Shown: positions 295 through 44,395 of the stretch, piece by piece
Layout: each line of letters opens with the position of its first letter
How positions within the stretch are numbered: position 1 is the stretch's first letter
Sequence record: MK327941.1
Origin: Escherichia phage vB_EcoM_G37-3
Strand: one strand, 5' to 3'
DNA length: 64,000 nt
Made by a program: the position numbers and the translations under genes
The notes under the pieces: generated by a model
The model's input: only the letters and a program-made list of their open reading frames with translations
The model's database searches: none
Told to the model about the DNA's origin: nothing

Positions 295-1982
295 ATGCAA
301 GATATTAAATTCACTTTCTGAACTACTCCCATGTTCAAATTGAATGTAGCGATTCAATTTTATTAGAAATGCGAGATTATTTTAGTTTTGAAGTCGAGGG
401 AGCGCGGTTTCAAAAAAGATTTAAGTATGGTGGATGGGATGGGCGTATTCGTCTTTTAGATTACAACGGAAAGCTGCCAATCGGTCTAACTAAAACCGTG
501 GGAATCTTCGCTAAAAATATGGGCTATAGCGTATGGGTAGATCCTCGCTTATTCGAAAAAGAACAAGTTACAGAAGAAGAAATTACAAAATGGTGTAATA
601 ACTTAGAATTATATTCCGGTGCTAACAGGATCACCCCTCATTGGTATCAATCAAAGGCCGTCTTTGAAGGTATTTCATCATAAACGCCGTATGTTAGTTT
701 TGCCTACGTCCGCTGGTAAATCTGCGATTGCTTGTATGTTGTCTCGTTGGTACTTAGAGAATTACGAAGGGAAAGTGTTGATCATCGTTCCTACCACGTC
801 GCTAGTGCTGCAAATGCGTGATGACTTTGTTGATTATCGCCAGTTTCCTTATGAAGCAATTCATACTATCATGAGCGGTACTAGTAAACACGTAGGTGAT
901 CGCCTGATCGTTGTTAGTACGTGGCAATCTGCATGTAAACAACCTAGTGAGTGGTTCCAACAATTCGGGATGGTTATTGTTGACGAATGTCACAAGGCCA
1001 CTGCTAAAACCTGCTAAACATCGTTACTGATATGGATCATTGTCAATTTAAGATCGGCATGACTGGTTCCCCTCGTGACGGGAAAGCTAACATGATGCAG
1101 TATGTCGGGCTTTTCGGTGATATTTCTAAGATCGTGAGTATTGACCGCCTGATGGAAGAAGGGCAGGTGACAAAACTGAAAATTAACTGTCTTTTCCTTC
1201 GTTATACCGATGAGGAATAGCGCGGTTAAGGGGCGAGAATATGCGGAAGAGATCAAGTACATTACATCTAACCCACGACGAAATAAGTTTGCTTGTAATT
1301 TGGCGCTAAAACTCGCTAAGAAGGGCGAAAACGTATTCCTGATGTTCCGCAACACTAAGCACTGAAAATTAACTGTCTTTTCCTTCGTTATACCGATGAG
1401 GAATGTAGCGCGGTTAAGGGGCGAGAATATGCGGAAGAGATCAAGTACATTACATCTAACCCACGACGAAATAAGTTTGCTTGTAATTTGGCGCTAAAAC
1501 TCGCTAAGAAGGGCGAAAACGTATTCCTGATGTTCCGCAACACTAAGCACGGAAAACTTATGTATGATGCGTTACAGAAGGTACACGACAAGGTTTATTA
1601 TATTGACGGTGGAGTTAAGACAGAAGAACGTGATGAATTTAAGAAATTAGCGGAAGGGGAAACCGGGATCATTTGCGTTGCATCCTATGGTGTGTTCTCT
1701 ACTGGTGTTTCCATCAAGAATTTGCATCATGTTATTTTCGGTCATCCAGTGAAGGAATCAACTATCGTTCGTCAGAGTATCGGTCGTGCATTGCGTAAAC
1801 ATGGTTCTAAGGATATTGCAACGGTCTGGGATCTTATAGATCATCTGGCGGTGAAGACAAAGAGCAATAATGCTAAGAAACAGTTTAGCCACCTTAATTA
1901 TGCTCTTAAACATGCGCTTGAAAGAATAAAAATTTACAACACCGATCGATTCGAATATGTCACGAAAACAATCGAGATTTAA
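295..1982 (+). pseudogene. uvsW: UvsW-like helicase gene, disrupted by three frameshifts and an internal tandem duplication
   Basis: Pieces in three frames (ATG 295; 369..683; 619..1017; 1032..1220; 1488..1982) together align along T4 UvsW (SAGKS Walker A, DECH box, C-terminal helicase domain); 1-nt frame breaks near 309-311, 672-680, 1009-1019; premature TAG at 1218. Confidence 0.85.
1176..1549 (+). repeat. imperfect direct tandem duplication (copy 1 1176..1361, 186 bp; copy 2 1362..1549, 188 bp) inside uvsW
   Basis: Copies identical except GT at 1405-1406, absent from copy 1, which gives TAG stop at 1218-1220. Confidence 0.9.
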
Positions 1983-6449: not shown

Positions 6450-6473
6450 ATGACGCATTAACATCATTTCGGG

Positions 6474-8177
6474 ATGCGCAAGGAAGCGGAAGAAAACCCG
6501 ATTGATAAACTTAACAAATTAGATAAACTTGATTCTATTGATAATTTGCAAGCCGCTACCGAATTGGTGGCGGAGACAGTGGAACAAAAATCTAATGAAG
6601 TTGTTGGTGCGGTAGAGGATAACACCGCAGCCAATGAATTGACGGCAGAAAATACACAATCTACCGCTGGCAATACCCAAAAAACTTATGAAGAATTGCA
6701 AAAACTCAATAATTTCTCTTCTCAGATGAATGAGAAATTACGTGGTTTTGGTGTTATGATGGAACGTAGATTTGGTGTTGTCAGTAAAATGGCTAGCGGT
6801 ATTGGTGCGATTGAAGAAGCATTGAAAAAACCGGAACAACCGCAAACAATGCCATCACCTCAGCCAGTTTTGCCTACTGTGCCGGAACAGCCTAATAATG
6901 ACAACTATCAAGGTCTTCCAAAGAAAAAACCAGATGTTGAGGAACGGAAGAAAAAGAACGCCACAGATAAGCGTAATGCAGATTCTATGGAAAATCTTCT
7001 TAAAGTTGTTCGTGGAGGATTTAAAGAAACCATAGGTATCTCTAATAAGGTCTTAGGGATGTTATTTAAGATCACTTTGACCGCTATGGCAGAAGCCGCA
7101 AAATGGGGTGCTATTTTGATGGGTATTGTTTTTGTCATTGATACCCTGATGGTTCATTTCAGATATTGGAGCGATTTATTCGAGACAAAGTTCAGTGAAT
7201 TTATGGATAAGGCCGGAGAATGGGCTGGTCCTATTAGCGATATTTTAACTACTGTTCGTCAGGTTCGAGATTATTGGTCTAAAGGCGAATATGGGGAGTT
7301 AATTAAATCTCTTGTTATGGGTATTGGTGATGCATTCTATAAAACCTTTATCCAACTTGATCGAATTATCACTACTGGTATTGCTAAAATTCTTCGCATG
7401 ATCCCTGGTATGGGTGATTATGCCGATAAGTTAGAATATGGTGCTTTAAAATCTGCTGTCGCTCAAGGCTATACGCCAAATGAAAGAGAACTCGAATTAA
7501 TGGATAAGATCGAGTCTGAACACGAAGAAGACAAATATGGAGAGCGCACAGGATGGACAGGAAAAGCCCGTGATATTGGCGAAGCTATTGGGGATTCTAT
7601 TAAGGATAAAGTTAACGAAGGTCTTGTTAGTCTGGGCTGGAGAGATCAAAAGGATGTTGACGCAGAGAAACGACAAGAAGAATTAAAACGCGGGGAATAT
7701 AAGTCTGTTTCTGCTGAACAACGATCTGCTAGTCGTAAACTTAGAATTAAAAGCGAGGGCGCGATCAATAATATTAATGAAGTTATGGAGAATTTGAGCG
7801 GTGACTATGACAAAGAAAGAATGGGAGAGTTGAAAAAGGATATTGATGTTTACCGTGAGCAAGTTCAAGATCCTACATTAGTTGAAAGTGATCGTTCTCA
7901 GTTAGAGCGTCTTATTGAAAAATTTGATGAGATGTATGCTGATAAAACTAAGGGTGTGGTTCCAACTAATCCTGTTCCTGCAACTGAAACGGAAACAGCA
8001 AAACAAGCGGAACGTACTGAACAAATGCAGAAACAAGCTGCAATCCAGCAACAAACGACAAATCAGACCTCAAACGTAAATAATACACAAATTGTAACAA
8101 ACAATAGAACTATTAAACAGGGTGCACCAACAACTAGAATTGATGCTCCCGGTACAATTAATATGGGGAACTTTTAA
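6474..8177 (+). CDS. 29: baseplate hub / tail length determinator gp29
   Basis: 567 aa; N-terminus resembles T4 gp29; start choice uncertain (weak RBS). Confidence 0.8.
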   Translation: MRKEAEENPIDKLNKLDKLDSIDNLQAATELVAETVEQKSNEVVGAVEDNTAANELTAENTQSTAGNTQKTYEELQKLNNFSSQMNEKLRGFGVMMERRFGVVSKMASGIGAIEEALKKPEQPQTMPSPQPVLPTVPEQPNNDNYQGLPKKKPDVEERKKKNATDKRNADSMENLLKVVRGGFKETIGISNKVLGMLFKITLTAMAEAAKWGAILMGIVFVIDTLMVHFRYWSDLFETKFSEFMDKAGEWAGPISDILTTVRQVRDYWSKGEYGELIKSLVMGIGDAFYKTFIQLDRIITTGIAKILRMIPGMGDYADKLEYGALKSAVAQGYTPNERELELMDKIESEHEEDKYGERTGWTGKARDIGEAIGDSIKDKVNEGLVSLGWRDQKDVDAEKRQEELKRGEYKSVSAEQRSASRKLRIKSEGAINNINEVMENLSGDYDKERMGELKKDIDVYREQVQDPTLVESDRSQLERLIEKFDEMYADKTKGVVPTNPVPATETETAKQAERTEQMQKQAAIQQQTTNQTSNVNNTQIVTNNRTIKQGAPTTRIDAPGTINMGNF

Positions 8178-16321: not shown

Positions 16322-16354
16322 TTTGATTCTCCTATTTCGTTTCGTTATGTGTGT

Positions 16355-16383
16355 ATTATAGGGGATCTCCCGATCCCCGTCAA
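16355..16383 (-). promoter_or_regulatory. early promoter cassette (PeSL-like)
   Basis: TTGACG-GGGATCGGGAGATCCCC-TATAAT. Confidence 0.6.
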
Positions 16384-21769: not shown

Positions 21770-22243
21770 TTACTCCTTATTTTCGCGCTCGTACTTTTCG
21801 AAATAAAATTCTACTGGCTGGTCATGAATTGACAGCAAGCCAAAGCGTTTAGCCGCTCGCAATCCCATATTGCGCTGAATGTACTTCTGGAAGTTCTCGC
21901 GTATACACTTACGCCAGTATTCTAAGCCCATACAGCTTTTATAAAGATTGCATTGCACACACGCCGGATTCATGTTATCAAGTATATCATGTTCCGGTTT
22001 ATGCATTCCTACAACCTTATACTTCCACGATCCATCATCATTACGGGCAATTCGTCCATTTTCATCATAGACTACCTTTGAGCGTCGCAATACTGGTTTG
22101 ATGTGGTCTGCGTGCCAGCGATCCCCTAGTTCCTCGCCACAATAGGCACAACGTCCACCATATTTCATTTTCAGGATCTGGCGTTGCTCTTTCTTTGACA
22201 ATTTTTTAGGTTTAGGGGCTTTCGCCCCTTCATTATCACACAT
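21770..22243 (-). CDS. small HNH endonuclease-like protein (157 aa)
   Basis: CAYCGEEL ... HADHIKP ... PACVQCN (HNH zinc-finger pattern); overlaps ligase stop. Confidence 0.65.
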   Translation of the reverse strand: MCDNEGAKAPKPKKLSKKEQRQILKMKYGGRCAYCGEELGDRWHADHIKPVLRRSKVVYDENGRIARNDDGSWKYKVVGMHKPEHDILDNMNPACVQCNLYKSCMGLEYWRKCIRENFQKYIQRNMGLRAAKRFGLLSIHDQPVEFYFEKYERENKE

Positions 22244-24434: not shown

Positions 24435-24758
24435 TTAACCGTAAACTACCACAATATTCTGTTTGTGCGTTACAGTCCATTTCAGGTCGATCTCTTCTTC
24501 CTTCTTAACGCCGTTAATAACGTCTGGATGAGGAACTTTATTAAGTTTCCCATGAGGAAGCAATACAGTCTTGCCCAGCAATTCTTTATCAACGTTATCA
24601 CCGATATCAATAATCTTACCGACTAAAGGAATCTCTCCCATAGTTCGTTTTTGCTCTATGATAATACCAAAATCGCTCTTTACTTCGGTCCCTGCGCTTT
24701 CCGCTTTAGCTTCAATGATCACATAGTCACCAAGTGCTTTAGGAGTTTTAACGGTCAT
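24435..24758 (-). CDS. 31: co-chaperonin GroES-like gp31
   Basis: 107 aa; GroES-like pattern (LGDYVII, AESAG); T4 position between ligase and cd. Confidence 0.7.
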   Translation of the reverse strand: MTVKTPKALGDYVIIEAKAESAGTEVKSDFGIIIEQKRTMGEIPLVGKIIDIGDNVDKELLGKTVLLPHGKLNKVPHPDVINGVKKEEEIDLKWTVTHKQNIVVVYG

Positions 24759-24799
24759 AATTTTCTTACCTCTTCAATTCATCTCAATAGTAAATTATT

Positions 24800-25410
24800 T
24801 TATTTCGCGACCTTTGGATTTCGCCGCAGACCGGAATGTATTTGCGCTATACAACAATAAGAAACATTAAACATATCAGCTATAATTTGCTTCTTAACTT
24901 TTCCTTTAAGCCGCATTATTTCTTCGACTTGCGCATTTGTCAGTTTTGCCCGTGAGTGGTTTTCACCGACATTGTTATTGAGTCCAGTTCTAAATGAATG
25001 TCTCATATTTTCTAGTAAGGTTACTATTTCTAGATTCCACACATAATTGCAGGTTTTACACCATTGATGTGATTAACCTCAAGTCCGGTAACGTCTCCTA
25101 GAAATGCATTTGCTACAAGTCGATGTATCTTTTCGGCTTTAACTGAGATTTTACCATTGTCTTTTTGTTTTGACAATGTTGAATAATAATATCCATATCG
25201 GTCTAAAATTGGTTTTATTATTTTACCAACACGTTTTTGTTTTACGAGCTTAATATTACCGGGAGAAACTTCTCTATAAAATTCGATACTTCGGTCAATA
25301 GATCTCAATCTACCATAATTAGAGATTTCATACCACGGATAACCTACAGCTTGTCTCCATTCTTCCGGCGCTGGTAATATGATATTATCATCTTTTGTTT
25401 CCATTGTCAA
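24800..25410 (-). pseudogene. HNH homing endonuclease (NUMOD4 + HNH) split by a -1 frameshift
   Basis: N-part YPWYEISNYGRLRS ... VNHINGVK; C-part CNYVWNLEIVTLLENMRH continues in another frame; shift at TTTT 25054-25057. Confidence 0.6.
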
Positions 25411-25733
25411 CTGCCACCGTAAATTTCGACGATCTGCGCTGGAGTCAGCCCATCCACATTAATCAGACTATCAAGCCCAAAACTACGGAAACCTTCAACT
25501 GCAATTTCATATACTGGCAAAGATGTTTCTGATTCTTTACGCGGTTTTTCAACATTCGGAACTAACCACTTTTCGTATGTTTCAAACGGCATCAGTGCCG
25601 GATCTCGCGTGGCGATCATCTCGCGGACAGTACCATCTTTCTTAGTAAACTGCAAAGAGTGAGTACCGACCGAAAACATTTTCTTTAGTGCTTCACGAAG
25701 TGCGATATTATCAACTTGTTCAGTCATTATCAA
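25407..25733 (-). CDS. hypothetical protein (108 aa)
   Basis: ORF overlapping cd stop. Confidence 0.55.
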   Translation of the reverse strand: MIMTEQVDNIALREALKKMFSVGTHSLQFTKKDGTVREMIATRDPALMPFETYEKWLVPNVEKPRKESETSLPVYEIAVEGFRSFGLDSLINVDGLTPAQIVEIYGGS

Positions 25734-31531: not shown

Positions 31532-32691
31532 AGATATTTCCCGAATCGGTTGTAGTCGTCGTCTGTTAAATCGGTATTAACCTGAGATACCAGATACATA
31601 ATCTCTACTTCTTGCGCTGCATTCTGTACTTCGTCAGAGTTCAACCATTTACGCATCCACGGTAACGGATGACGACGAACACTAAACGGGCTTTTCAGTC
31701 CGGCAGCACGCATACGGGAATCTGCCAGGTATTCTACATAGGTTTTCAGAATTTCCGGTGACAGGTTAGGAATTGCCCCCATTGCGAATAGGTGGTCTAC
31801 CCATTCTTTTTCTTGCTCGACAACATCCAGAAAGATTTTCGTTGCTTCACCTTCAAGTTCTTCCGCAATCTGTTTCCACTCATCACCATCAACCCCCGTT
31901 TGCCATTGACGAATAATGTATTGTGTGCCTTTTAAGTGAAGTTGTTCATCACGCGCAATAAATTTCATGATCTTCGCGTTACCTTCCAGTAAACCACGTT
32001 CGGCAAAGCTGAAAGTACATGCAAAGGACACATAAAAACGAATTGCTTCCAGTGCATTGACGCAGTGTGCACACAGATAAATCGAAGCCATCAGATCTCG
32101 TTTTGTATCTTCAAAAAATCTTCTTGCATCATCTAATGCTGTCTGGTCGTCTCGTTCTTCCCAATAGCGGAGATCTTCTTTTGCATTCTCATACTTACGA
32201 ATCCAATAAAGAACATCATCATAATATTTCCCGATAGATTCCGCTCGCTTCATGATAGCAGGGTTATCGATGATCTGGTCGAACTCACTAGCCGGATCAA
32301 TGAAACAGTTACGCATAATGTGTGTATAGCTTCGGCTATGAATCGTTTCGCTGAATGTCCATGTTTGCAACCATGTATCGAGAGTTGGATCAGATACAAT
32401 TGGACCAAATACACGGGCTGGCGCTCTGCCTTGAATCGAATCTAGCAAAGTTTGATAACGTAAGTTCTCGGTGAAGAAACGCTTTTCAACATCGCTCATA
32501 TTCAGATATTGAATGCGGTCAGTTGCAAGTGAAATCTCTTCTGGACGCCAGAAAAATGACAACTGCTTCTCGATCAACTCTTCAAATACTTGATGACGCT
32601 GAATATCATAACGAGCAATCCCTAAATCACTACCAAAAAACATCGGTTCGGTCATAATATCAACATGTTCACGATTAAATACGCTCATCAC
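31528..32691 (-). CDS. nrdB: ribonucleotide reductase small subunit
   Basis: 387 aa uninterrupted; synteny. Confidence 0.9.
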   Translation of the reverse strand: MMSVFNREHVDIMTEPMFFGSDLGIARYDIQRHQVFEELIEKQLSFFWRPEEISLATDRIQYLNMSDVEKRFFTENLRYQTLLDSIQGRAPARVFGPIVSDPTLDTWLQTWTFSETIHSRSYTHIMRNCFIDPASEFDQIIDNPAIMKRAESIGKYYDDVLYWIRKYENAKEDLRYWEERDDQTALDDARRFFEDTKRDLMASIYLCAHCVNALEAIRFYVSFACTFSFAERGLLEGNAKIMKFIARDEQLHLKGTQYIIRQWQTGVDGDEWKQIAEELEGEATKIFLDVVEQEKEWVDHLFAMGAIPNLSPEILKTYVEYLADSRMRAAGLKSPFSVRRHPLPWMRKWLNSDEVQNAAQEVEIMYLVSQVNTDLTDDDYNRFGKYL

Positions 32692-33230
32692 TATTCTCCA
32701 TCAATTTTGTTTATATTGTAACCCATGTTGCCTTTTTCTATTTCTCTCAACGCAACTGAATTAAACGCTCTTGCCGCATCTTGTTCGCTATCAAATCTCC
32801 CTATATGAACACTCTTTCCTTGTATATTAATATGAACTAGCCATCTATTTGTGTACTTACACCAACTTACCCCGTTATATTTTGATGATGCACCTTTAAA
32901 TTTAGTTCTGTTTCGATTGTTGACAGAATAATCAGTACCTCGTAAATTTTCTATATGATTGTTCAGCTTGTTTCGGTCGATGTGATCTATAACTTTAGGC
33001 TTATGCCCGTGAAACATATGATAAATCACATGATGTATTAACTTCTTTCTATTGTCTACTGTTAGTTGAAGATATCCCCCATTATGTGGACTTCCAACCT
33101 CATCACCAACTTTAACTTTATTGCTTGTTGAAACCTTTCTGAAAAGTTTACCATCTTCGTATTTAAATAGATAATGATACCTTTCGTAAAGTATTCGGTC
33201 CTCTTCCGTATAATGTATTACCTCATACAT
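32691..33230 (-). CDS. HNH + AP2-domain homing endonuclease (mobE-like position)
   Basis: 179 aa; IDHIDRNKLNN (HNH) and YNGVSWCK...HIGRFDSEQDAARAFN (AP2-like). Confidence 0.7.
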   Translation of the reverse strand: MYEVIHYTEEDRILYERYHYLFKYEDGKLFRKVSTSNKVKVGDEVGSPHNGGYLQLTVDNRKKLIHHVIYHMFHGHKPKVIDHIDRNKLNNHIENLRGTDYSVNNRNRTKFKGASSKYNGVSWCKYTNRWLVHINIQGKSVHIGRFDSEQDAARAFNSVALREIEKGNMGYNINKIDGE

Positions 33231-38471: not shown

Positions 38472-38488
38472 TATACACTATTGCGTTA
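38461..38488 (-). promoter_or_regulatory. early promoter cassette
   Basis: TTGACA, 16-nt spacer, TATAAT. Confidence 0.5.
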
Positions 38489-39709
38489 CGCTGTCAACTC
38501 TTTTTCAAAAGATTTTACGATATACATGATGGTGCTCAATTCGGACGGCGCTACTGTCTCTGTGTAGCCATCCGGCATATCTTCTTTCGAGATATAGGAA
38601 GTTTTACCTTTCATTGCTTCCTTGATTTTGTTCTCTAATTCTAAGATCTTTTGACCGTCTTGTAAAGTCAATTCATAAAAGATCTCATGATCGAACTTTG
38701 AAACACGAGATTGGTTTCTCATGCGCTCATGTGTTTCTTTGTTTGTTATTCCAAATTTCACGCCAACAAAGGAATCATTGTTGGTTAATTTCTGTATATA
38801 AAGAGTTCCTGTCTTTAATGCCTGATAACCATGCTTAGAACACAACGGGCAGCGTGTTCCGCGATTAACAAAATTATCAATAGTTACATCCCATTCATGG
38901 TTACGTTCGCATGTCAGAAGTATTCTTGTTAATGCACCTTTCCACTTTCCTGAAATCCCAATAAATTTTAGTCTGTTGGTTTCGCATATTTTTTTAATTT
39001 GTTTTAATCGGTCACTTTTTGTTATTGGTGCTGTTCCGCTACATTTGCGACACCGACGACCTAGTTTGAACTTATCATAACTTTGTTCGTAAATGTGATT
39101 ATTAGGACACTCAAATTTAAGTTTAGTTTTTGTTCCTCTCCATTCCCCAATTATACCCAAAAATTTATAATCTCCTTTATTTTCATTTATATAAGATAAG
39201 GAATCTTCTTTATCATGCATCTTGCCCCCGTTACATAAAGGACATCTTGTTTTTTGATGAATGAAATCTGTATATGTTGGTTGGTATGTGTGTCCGTTTG
39301 TACAGTTCATAATGAGTCTTGTTCTGCTATTTTTATACTCCCCACCAACAAAACCAACAAATACATCGTTTGTTTCTTGTTTTATTCTTTCTATCACATT
39401 GTTTGGGTTTAATCTTTGAGAATCAACCACACATTTCTTACACGAAACTTTTTTCCTGATATTTGCTAGAGTTGATGTGTATTCATGCTTGTTATTACAT
39501 AATATAAGAGCTTTTGTTTTGAGACCAGACCATTCTCCAACAAACCCCATGAAAGAATAACCAACTTCCAAACATGAATTTTTTACAACATTTTCCCAAT
39601 AGAAGGGAGTTTTCGTGTTTCCTTTTATTTCTATACGAATCTCGTGTGCTTGACGTACCAACATATTTTTATCCTCCGTTGTTTCGATGATTGTATTATA
39701 CATTACCAC
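38486..39709 (-). CDS. protein with four tandem Cys-containing repeats and C-terminal GIY-YIG / T5orf172-like domain (407 aa)
   Basis: four roughly 45-aa repeats (FxGxxGEWxGxKTK...CxNxHxY, CPLC / CRKC) then LYIQKL...VKFGITNK...DGYTETV. Confidence 0.55.
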   Translation of the reverse strand: MVMYNTIIETTEDKNMLVRQAHEIRIEIKGNTKTPFYWENVVKNSCLEVGYSFMGFVGEWSGLKTKALILCNNKHEYTSTLANIRKKVSCKKCVVDSQRLNPNNVIERIKQETNDVFVGFVGGEYKNSRTRLIMNCTNGHTYQPTYTDFIHQKTRCPLCNGGKMHDKEDSLSYINENKGDYKFLGIIGEWRGTKTKLKFECPNNHIYEQSYDKFKLGRRCRKCSGTAPITKSDRLKQIKKICETNRLKFIGISGKWKGALTRILLTCERNHEWDVTIDNFVNRGTRCPLCSKHGYQALKTGTLYIQKLTNNDSFVGVKFGITNKETHERMRNQSRVSKFDHEIFYELTLQDGQKILELENKIKEAMKGKTSYISKEDMPDGYTETVAPSELSTIMYIVKSFEKELTA

Positions 39710-43779: not shown

Positions 43780-44361
43780 TCATCCTCTTTTTGGAAAATT
43801 TAAATAAGCATACTCGCCAACTATTTCATGTGCTGCACGGTCATAAGCCTTAGCCGCCTCAACTTCTGTCTCAAAGTATCCTAGATGTATATTCTTTCGA
43901 TTGATAACAATATACGCCTTCCACGGCTTTTTCTTGCTTGGTGATAATGATACACCTTTATATTTGCTATGGCAAGCCTTTTTCTTTGAGACGTTAAACT
44001 GATTTTGCTGTTCGGTTGCTTCTCTCATGTTTGACGGTCTATTGTTAGTTTTGTCTTGGTCTATGTGATCTATTCGTTCAACCTGAGTACCATACTCTAA
44101 AAACCAGACAACTCTATGTACAAACAGATTAAGTTTATGACCATTGTTGTAAAATGTAAAGTATAAATATCCTTCTTTATGGAGACATACCCTTACCACA
44201 TCACCTTTTTTGTATATGGACCCTTCTTTTCGGAATCCAGCAGCTACAGAATCCTTTAAATGGTATAATATTCCATCGACATGATAGAATCTACCTTTTA
44301 TCGCTTTCTGTGTCTCGATATCCCAAAATTTTGTTTTTGCCACAACAAACACCTCACACAA
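43780..44361 (-). CDS. HNH + AP2-domain homing endonuclease (193 aa)
   Basis: IDHIDQDKTNN (HNH) and YKGVS...HLGYFETEVEAAKAYD (AP2-like); paralog of 32691..33230. Confidence 0.7.
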   Translation of the reverse strand: MCEVFVVAKTKFWDIETQKAIKGRFYHVDGILYHLKDSVAAGFRKEGSIYKKGDVVRVCLHKEGYLYFTFYNNGHKLNLFVHRVVWFLEYGTQVERIDHIDQDKTNNRPSNMREATEQQNQFNVSKKKACHSKYKGVSLSPSKKKPWKAYIVINRKNIHLGYFETEVEAAKAYDRAAHEIVGEYAYLNFPKRG

Positions 44362-44395
44362 TAAATAATTTCATATTATAACAGGAGACCCAATA

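Follow-up and report, generated by a model that had tools for sequence, protein, structure and literature searches.

The coliphage vB_EcoM_G37-3 carries, between genes 31.1 and 31, a homing endonuclease gene that is split between two reading frames at a run of four A residues (A4), where its relatives have five (A5). Judged from the protein that it predicts, the ancestral gene is a NUMOD4-HNH_3 (I-HmuI-like) homing endonuclease gene, of which the vB_EcoM_G37-3 copy is a broken member. vB_EcoM_G37-3 (MK327941) was isolated from pig manure (Korf et al. 2019, PMC6563267) and is kept at the DSMZ as DSM 103248. It is a Krischvirus, an RB49-like T4-type coliphage with a genome of 167,832 bp, and the stretch analysed here, referred to as the window, comprises 64,000 nucleotides of the record MK327941.1. 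We put a probability of about 0.55 on the reading that the A4 run is a genuine, recent inactivating mutation, which arose by replication slippage at an A-run in a dispensable selfish gene. The importance of the finding beyond annotation is small. If the deletion is real, it provides a dated record of a freestanding homing endonuclease at the onset of degeneration, while sister phages retain intact copies.

On the minus strand, between positions 24800 and 25410, two open reading frames (ORFs) in different frames are the halves of one endonuclease gene:

25404-25030, minus strand: N-terminal fragment, an ORF of 124 aa from ATG 25404 to the stop TAG at 25032-25030
25054-25057, minus strand: frameshift site, an A4 run (TTTT on the plus strand) in the context GTAAAACC
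25053-24800, minus strand: C-terminal part in the other frame, ending with TAA at 24802-24800

The N-terminal fragment contains the NUMOD4 module and the first half of the HNH domain (…EVNHINGVK), followed by seven out-of-frame codons. Counted from a TTG codon, this ORF spans 25030 to 25410, comprises 126 aa and ends on VNHINGVKPAIMCGI-stop; counted from ATG 25404, its C-terminal end is given as EVNHINGVKPAIMCGI-stop. The C-terminal part provides the second half of the HNH domain (CNYVWNLEIVTLLENMRH) and a helical, helix-turn-helix-like C-terminal domain. As an ORF with a GTG start it extends over 24800 to 25042 (80 aa) and begins with MWNLEIVTLLENMRH. Addition of one A to the A4 run fuses both frames and gives VNHINGVKTCNYVWNLEIVTLLENMRH. 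The frameshift is located at codons K117/T118, within the ββα-Me (HNH) catalytic core. Since the catalytic core is broken, neither fragment can be an active nuclease, and as written the vB_EcoM_G37-3 copy is predicted to be dead. Both halves are already present in GenBank as two separate genes of vB_EcoM_G37-3: QBO64816.1 ('protein with NUMOD4 motif') is an exact match to the N-terminal fragment, and QBO64815.1 ('hypothetical protein G37_3_00217neu') exactly matches an ATG-started 68-aa piece of the C-terminal part.

The assignment to the homing endonucleases comes from several comparisons. Pfam reveals NUMOD4 (PF07463) in residues 16-79 of the N-terminal ORF (E=1.1e-11; 45.3 bits at a cut-off of 23.4). 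HNH_3 reaches 17.1 bits in the same ORF as written, which is below the cut-off of 24.8 bits and covers model positions 2-28 only, and the C-terminal ORF as written has no Pfam match. In the repaired protein of 203 aa, the HNH_3 match amounts to 35.4 bits and covers model positions 2-46 of 46. The repaired protein furthermore matches PHROG 59 'HNH endonuclease' (1.9e-35). I-HmuI (PDB 1U3E) is the only solved structure found by sequence (E=0.003, residues 56-159), and its alignment continues across the frameshift junction. A first-pass annotation of the window had described an HNH homing endonuclease with a NUMOD4-like N-terminus. Pfam (NUMOD4 and HNH_3), PHROG 59 and I-HmuI agree with this description, and so does the annotation 'HNH homing endonuclease' in the relatives E26, ECD7 and ELT4.

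In an alignment with distant homologues of the same NUMOD4+HNH_3 architecture (approximately 35% identity), the residues N111, H112, N114, G115, K117, N120, N124, L125, N133, G141 and L142 are invariant and H136 is nearly so. The repaired frame supplies every invariant residue past K117, namely N120, N124, L125, N133, G141 and L142. The catalytic His and the metal-binding Asn residues (H112, N120, N124, N133) are thus all encoded, but in two frames. The A4 break separates the catalytic His (…NHING) from the metal-binding Asn residues (…NLE…EN), and a complete HNH domain is found in neither polypeptide of the copy as written.

Phages with and without the endonuclease gene at the 31.1/31 locus are designated HEG+ and HEG-, respectively. 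Comparison with intact homologues, which had been proposed in the first-pass annotation, revealed A5 in 15 of 15 distinct relatives carrying the gene (nine phage records plus metagenome and Logan contigs). The first-pass annotation had placed the A4 run (T4 on the plus strand) at 25054-25057 and had proposed that one extra A joins the two frames there. The ORF translations put the run at exactly this position, and A5 in all relatives confirms the join site. The intact ORF needs a small revision: it was given as 200 aa, and the intact relatives show 203 aa with the start at ATG 25404, not at TTG 25410. A single coding sequence of 612 nt with a product of 203 aa is present in eight of the nine distinct HEG+ phages. 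The intact 203-aa protein occurs on at least 52 contigs, each truncated protein on one. As 15 distinct sequences carry the gene in the same place with A5, the split is not a chance resemblance.

The A4 allele was not found in IMG/VR, JGI metagenomes or GTDB genomes. In a control search, the A5 allele matched one IMG/VR contig and no metagenome contig, and the metagenome negative for A4 therefore has little weight. Given A5 in all relatives and A4 nowhere else, the A4 state is derived and unique to MK327941. A near-identical twin genome for error calling was not found, the best relative being approximately 99% identical; a 167,851-bp ENA contig that was considered as a twin of MK327941 is not one.

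Over the 1,361 nt of 31.1, the HNH gene and gene 31, four differences are private to vB_EcoM_G37-3. These are the deletion in the A-run, one synonymous change in gene 31 (24657) and the following two:

25229, minus strand: private nonsynonymous substitution GCT to GTT, Ala58Val; vB_EcoM_G37-3 has T, all 15 others have C
24795-24802, minus strand: second private 1-nt deletion, AAATATAAATAA to AAATAAAATAA, with a T lost between 24801 and 24800

Ala58Val changes KRAGKI to KRVGKI. Outside vB_EcoM_G37-3, the same endonuclease gene is split in the phage FL20 (PP400781.1, 996-1608). Here an independent +T (GACGTTACC to GACGTTTACC), 36 nt upstream of the G37-3 frameshift, leaves ORFs of 108 aa and 70 aa. 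The FL20 endonuclease has a Tyr-to-Phe change in the CNY motif as well.

Concerning the locus, the endonuclease gene is located on an insert with the following surroundings:

24803-25421, minus strand: endonuclease-specific insert, 619 nt here and 620 nt in relatives, absent from HEG- phages
25407-25733, minus strand: gene 31.1 (WYL_2, PF10902), the C-terminus of which becomes …EIYGGS-stop instead of …EIYK-stop through the insertion
24435-24758, minus strand: gene 31 (GroES-like head-assembly co-chaperonin), the essential downstream neighbour, intact
24543-24792, minus strand: divergent tract of approximately 250 nt linked to the endonuclease, comprising the spacer and the first 216 nt of gene 31

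The insertion point lies within the final codons of gene 31.1, with GAAATT on one side and TATAAATAA on the other. In the HEG- phages JSE, kvi, RB49, W115 and Phi1, gene 31.1 ends with GAAATT directly followed by TATAAATAA (…EIYK-stop). The endonuclease in turn ends on the native Tyr-Lys-stop of 31.1. The stop of gene 31.1 and the endonuclease ATG downstream are 2 nt apart. This spacing suggests a cassette that has no promoter and is translationally coupled to 31.1. Among 59 records of related phages, 11 contain the insert and about 48 do not, and the context on all contigs read is 31.1 / HNH / 31. Both states occur within the species 'Krischvirus RB49', PHB13 being HEG+ and RB49 and kvi being HEG-.

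When 10 HEG+ and 4 HEG- phages were aligned over 3.6 kb, all 44 fixed differences between the two groups fell within 24543-24792. The first 216 nt of gene 31 contain 38 nucleotide differences with only five amino acid changes, as compared to one nucleotide difference in the remaining 108 nt; cd, 31.1, 30.3 and the ligase gene contain none. This segment is a probable co-conversion or cleavage-immunity tract, and it suggests a cleavage target located in the 5' part of gene 31 or close by. Patchy presence together with a linked tract is the pattern typically left by a mobile freestanding homing endonuclease that carries along a cleavage-resistant version of its target. In a co-infected cell, the intact 203-aa enzyme would cleave HEG- genomes in the 5' part of gene 31 or close to it. 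Through repair of the double-strand break, the cut genome would then acquire the cassette and, along with it, the divergent, presumably uncleavable 5' segment of gene 31. The vB_EcoM_G37-3 copy may represent the degeneration stage of such a homing cycle, in a selfish gene that the phage can spare.

Among characterised enzymes, I-HmuI of Bacillus phage SPO1 has the same domain order, a NUMOD4-type beta-sheet module followed by HNH (ββα-Me) and a C-terminal helical, helix-turn-helix part, with weak sequence similarity to the G37-3-type protein. The gene for I-HmuI resides in an intron and the enzyme nicks one strand, whereas the G37-3-type gene is freestanding between two genes. The residue before the catalytic His is Asn in the G37-3-type protein (VNH) and Asp in I-HmuI (VDH). 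In genomic arrangement, the closest likeness is offered by phage T4, where seg and mob genes are promoter-less cassettes with embedded promoters of essential downstream genes and with co-conversion tracts (PMC2988022). T4 mobA-mobE (e.g. MobE between nrdA and nrdB) are likewise freestanding HNH genes between conserved genes (PMC2988022, PMC2790892). With the T4 mob genes the cassette seems to share the use of upstream transcription, a downstream promoter at or within its 3' end and a co-converted flank. The locus is a different one (31.1/31), at which T4 has no gene of this kind, and the likeness is drawn from genomic anatomy. For a broken endonuclease, I-TevIII provides a precedent, being a truncated, defunct HNH endonuclease in the T4 nrdB intron and full length in RB3 (PMC2790892, PMC2988022). 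Both genes are intact in some T4-like phages and truncated in another. However, I-TevIII is intron-encoded and its truncation is verified in T4, whereas the G37-3 break is a single-base change in one record. No new mechanism or kind of system is involved, and the split is ordinary selfish-gene decay or a sequencing error.

The second private deletion is a feature missing from the first-pass annotation. It leads to an earlier stop with loss of the terminal Tyr-Lys, the last two codons of the endonuclease. Moreover, it destroys TATAAATA, a late-promoter motif upstream of gene 31 that corresponds to the T4-type late-promoter consensus. In the relatives, this motif is located at the 3' end of the cassette, and the start codon of gene 31 follows 36 nt downstream. 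In HEG- phages the motif makes up the final codons of gene 31.1, in HEG+ phages those of the endonuclease. All 30 HEG+ and HEG- loci compared have kept it, and it is absent only in vB_EcoM_G37-3. Four copies are found in the 64-kb window, and all four lie directly upstream of late genes, namely uvsW, the gp51 baseplate cluster, gp34 and gp36. The site of the second deletion contains no homopolymer. For work on T4-like endonucleases, the exact insertion point and the retained gene 31 late promoter are possibly more useful than the frameshift. The same holds for the sharply bounded 250-nt tract in gene 31, which seems to point to the probable cut region.

The record has a conspicuous irregularity of its own in uvsW (approximately 300-1980, plus strand). 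The gene is present as five ORF pieces with private indels of 1-2 nt at about 307, 673, 1006 and 1218, and at least three frameshifting indels fall within about 1 kb. It also contains an imperfect tandem duplication of 186-188 nt (1175-1368 / 1361-1556) that is present in none of 55 relatives. Most likely, the duplication is an untrimmed, poorly polished contig-end overlap that resulted from rotating a circularly permuted assembly. Phages of this collection were sequenced either with PacBio RSII/HGAP3 or with Illumina/SPAdes at k=55, and T4-like contigs were rotated (Korf et al. 2019, PMC6563267). The mean coverage of vB_EcoM_G37-3 is 456x; the paper and its supplement give no platform for the individual phages (PMC6563267). 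An imperfect overlap of approximately 187 nt is unlike a k=55 SPAdes contig, which makes PacBio likely. MK327941 was therefore likely sequenced by PacBio, perhaps without short-read polishing.

The first-pass annotation had left three readings side by side, a degenerate gene, a homopolymer error and a slippage site. The first two survive, whereas the slippage site does not, as there is neither conservation nor structure. Under the second, the phage itself has A5, an intact 203-aa ORF and TATAAATA, and both 1-nt deletions exist only in the deposited consensus. We regard such a record error as a serious competitor, if a less probable one than a real mutation. A 1-nt deletion in a homopolymer is the typical residual error of unpolished PacBio RSII/HGAP3 sequence, and the A4 allele is unique to MK327941. 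The uvsW gene of the same record shows a clear assembly defect while it is intact in 55 relatives, and one of its indels is of the same A5-to-A4 type (CT-AAAACC versus CTAAAAACC). Private indels and substitutions stand at 2:1 in the endonuclease gene, as compared to a handful to 279 window-wide. Furthermore, the second deletion removes a motif that every relative has kept, which is unexpected for a mutation that persists. If the record is in error, QBO64815.1 and QBO64816.1 should be merged.

Other observations speak against an error in the record. Apart from the uvsW junction zone, there is no other broken gene in the 64 kb, approximately 94% of which is coding. A private contraction is found in only one of about 219 A/T runs of at least 5 nt (49 kb), and at a mean coverage of 456x an A5 run is normally called right. 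The second deletion is not in a homopolymer. Two independent random errors would both have to fall into a gene of about 610 nt, the chance of which is about 1e-4. Errors that are blind to function should, in addition, mostly strike essential genes. The other private small indels, at 6469, 17097 and 19958, are intergenic or tolerated; this census of private indels excludes spurious calls at 16324-16378 that stem from a paralogous HSP. Mutations filtered by selection should survive at exactly such sites, which favours a real mutation. A lysate of mixed HEG+ and HEG- phages was also considered as a source of error and is unlikely, since a deletion well inside the insert would not result from it and the gene 31 tract shows no chimerism.

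A real mutation has further points in its favour. The endonuclease copy also carries the private nonsynonymous change A58V, and no damage is seen in the window's three other HNH-type genes. Decay is recurrent in this group of phages, as the same gene is frameshifted in FL20 and another HNH gene is split in PHB13. T4-type replication is classically prone to frameshifts at A-runs, as described by the Streisinger model.

Two readings give the A4 allele a use. According to the first, the split is recoded: a -1 slip of tRNA-Lys on A_AAA_C, or slippage of RNA polymerase, would yield low levels of a toxic nuclease beside a NUMOD4-only protein. This we consider next to negligible. The sequence GUA AAA C does allow perfect re-pairing of tRNA-Lys with AAA in the -1 frame, and the next codon after such a slip is ACC, which leads to exactly the protein of the relatives (…VKTCNY…). 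However, an X_XXY_YYZ heptamer is absent, and G_GUA_AAA_C offers a single-tRNA A_AAA slip only. Downstream of the site there is no structure (MFE -11 kcal/mol, z=0.28), as 116 of 200 shuffled sequences fold as well or better. The sole upstream SD-like element (GGUG) is separated from the site by 2-3 nt, and such a distance promotes +1 and not -1 frameshifting. Efficient transcriptional slippage needs runs of about 7-9 or more, and a run of 4 nt is far too short for it. Most importantly, the two-frame arrangement is kept in none of the 15 distinct relatives, all of which have A5. A programmed frameshift is rejected on these grounds, the lack of a heptamer, of structure and of a sufficient run and, above all, of conservation.

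The second of these readings is that the 124-aa NUMOD4 protein might serve as a domesticated, nuclease-free DNA-binding repressor or protector of the gene 31 region, for which we see a very faint chance. The full NUMOD4 module is kept in the N-terminal ORF, and T4 intron endonucleases double as transcriptional autorepressors, as in the autorepression by I-TevI (PMC2988022). FL20, moreover, is independently truncated at nearly the same place. Against such a role, each truncated form is found on one contig only, with no sign of spread or selection, and the C-terminal helix-turn-helix domain is lost. In I-HmuI-type enzymes (1U3E), DNA binding also requires this C-terminal helix-turn-helix domain. 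Overall, there is a slim chance that the A4 allele is both real and useful, either through trace amounts of full-length nuclease made by -1 slippage or as a NUMOD4-only regulator near gene 31. If it were useful, the FL20 truncation 36 nt upstream would hint at recurrent selection.

A few other features of the window deserve mention. In the gene for a gp29-like tail/baseplate hub protein (6469-6474, plus strand), a private 2-nt deletion (CG) relative to four relatives is located just past the usual start. With its new start at ATG 6474, the ORF comprises 567 aa versus 575-577 aa, a loss of about 8-10 codons. This deletion may be genuine or a further error of the consensus.

Homing endonuclease genes are numerous in Krischvirus; their distribution is patchy, and their decay has reached different stages. 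An intact gene for an endonuclease with HNH_3 and AP2 domains adjoins nrdB (32691-33230, minus strand) and is absent from PHB13. Another gene of the same domain composition (43783-44370, minus strand) adjoins gp34; it is intact here (196 aa) and split in PHB13. A 157-aa classical HNH protein (PF01844) is encoded at 21770-22243 (minus strand), overlapping the start of the DNA ligase gene, and this gene is present in PHB13, E26 and G2494 as well. Finally, a 407-aa protein with three CapR-homology / treble-clef zinc-finger repeats is encoded at 38486-39709 (minus strand), within a segment of approximately 1.1 kb that fails to align with PHB13.
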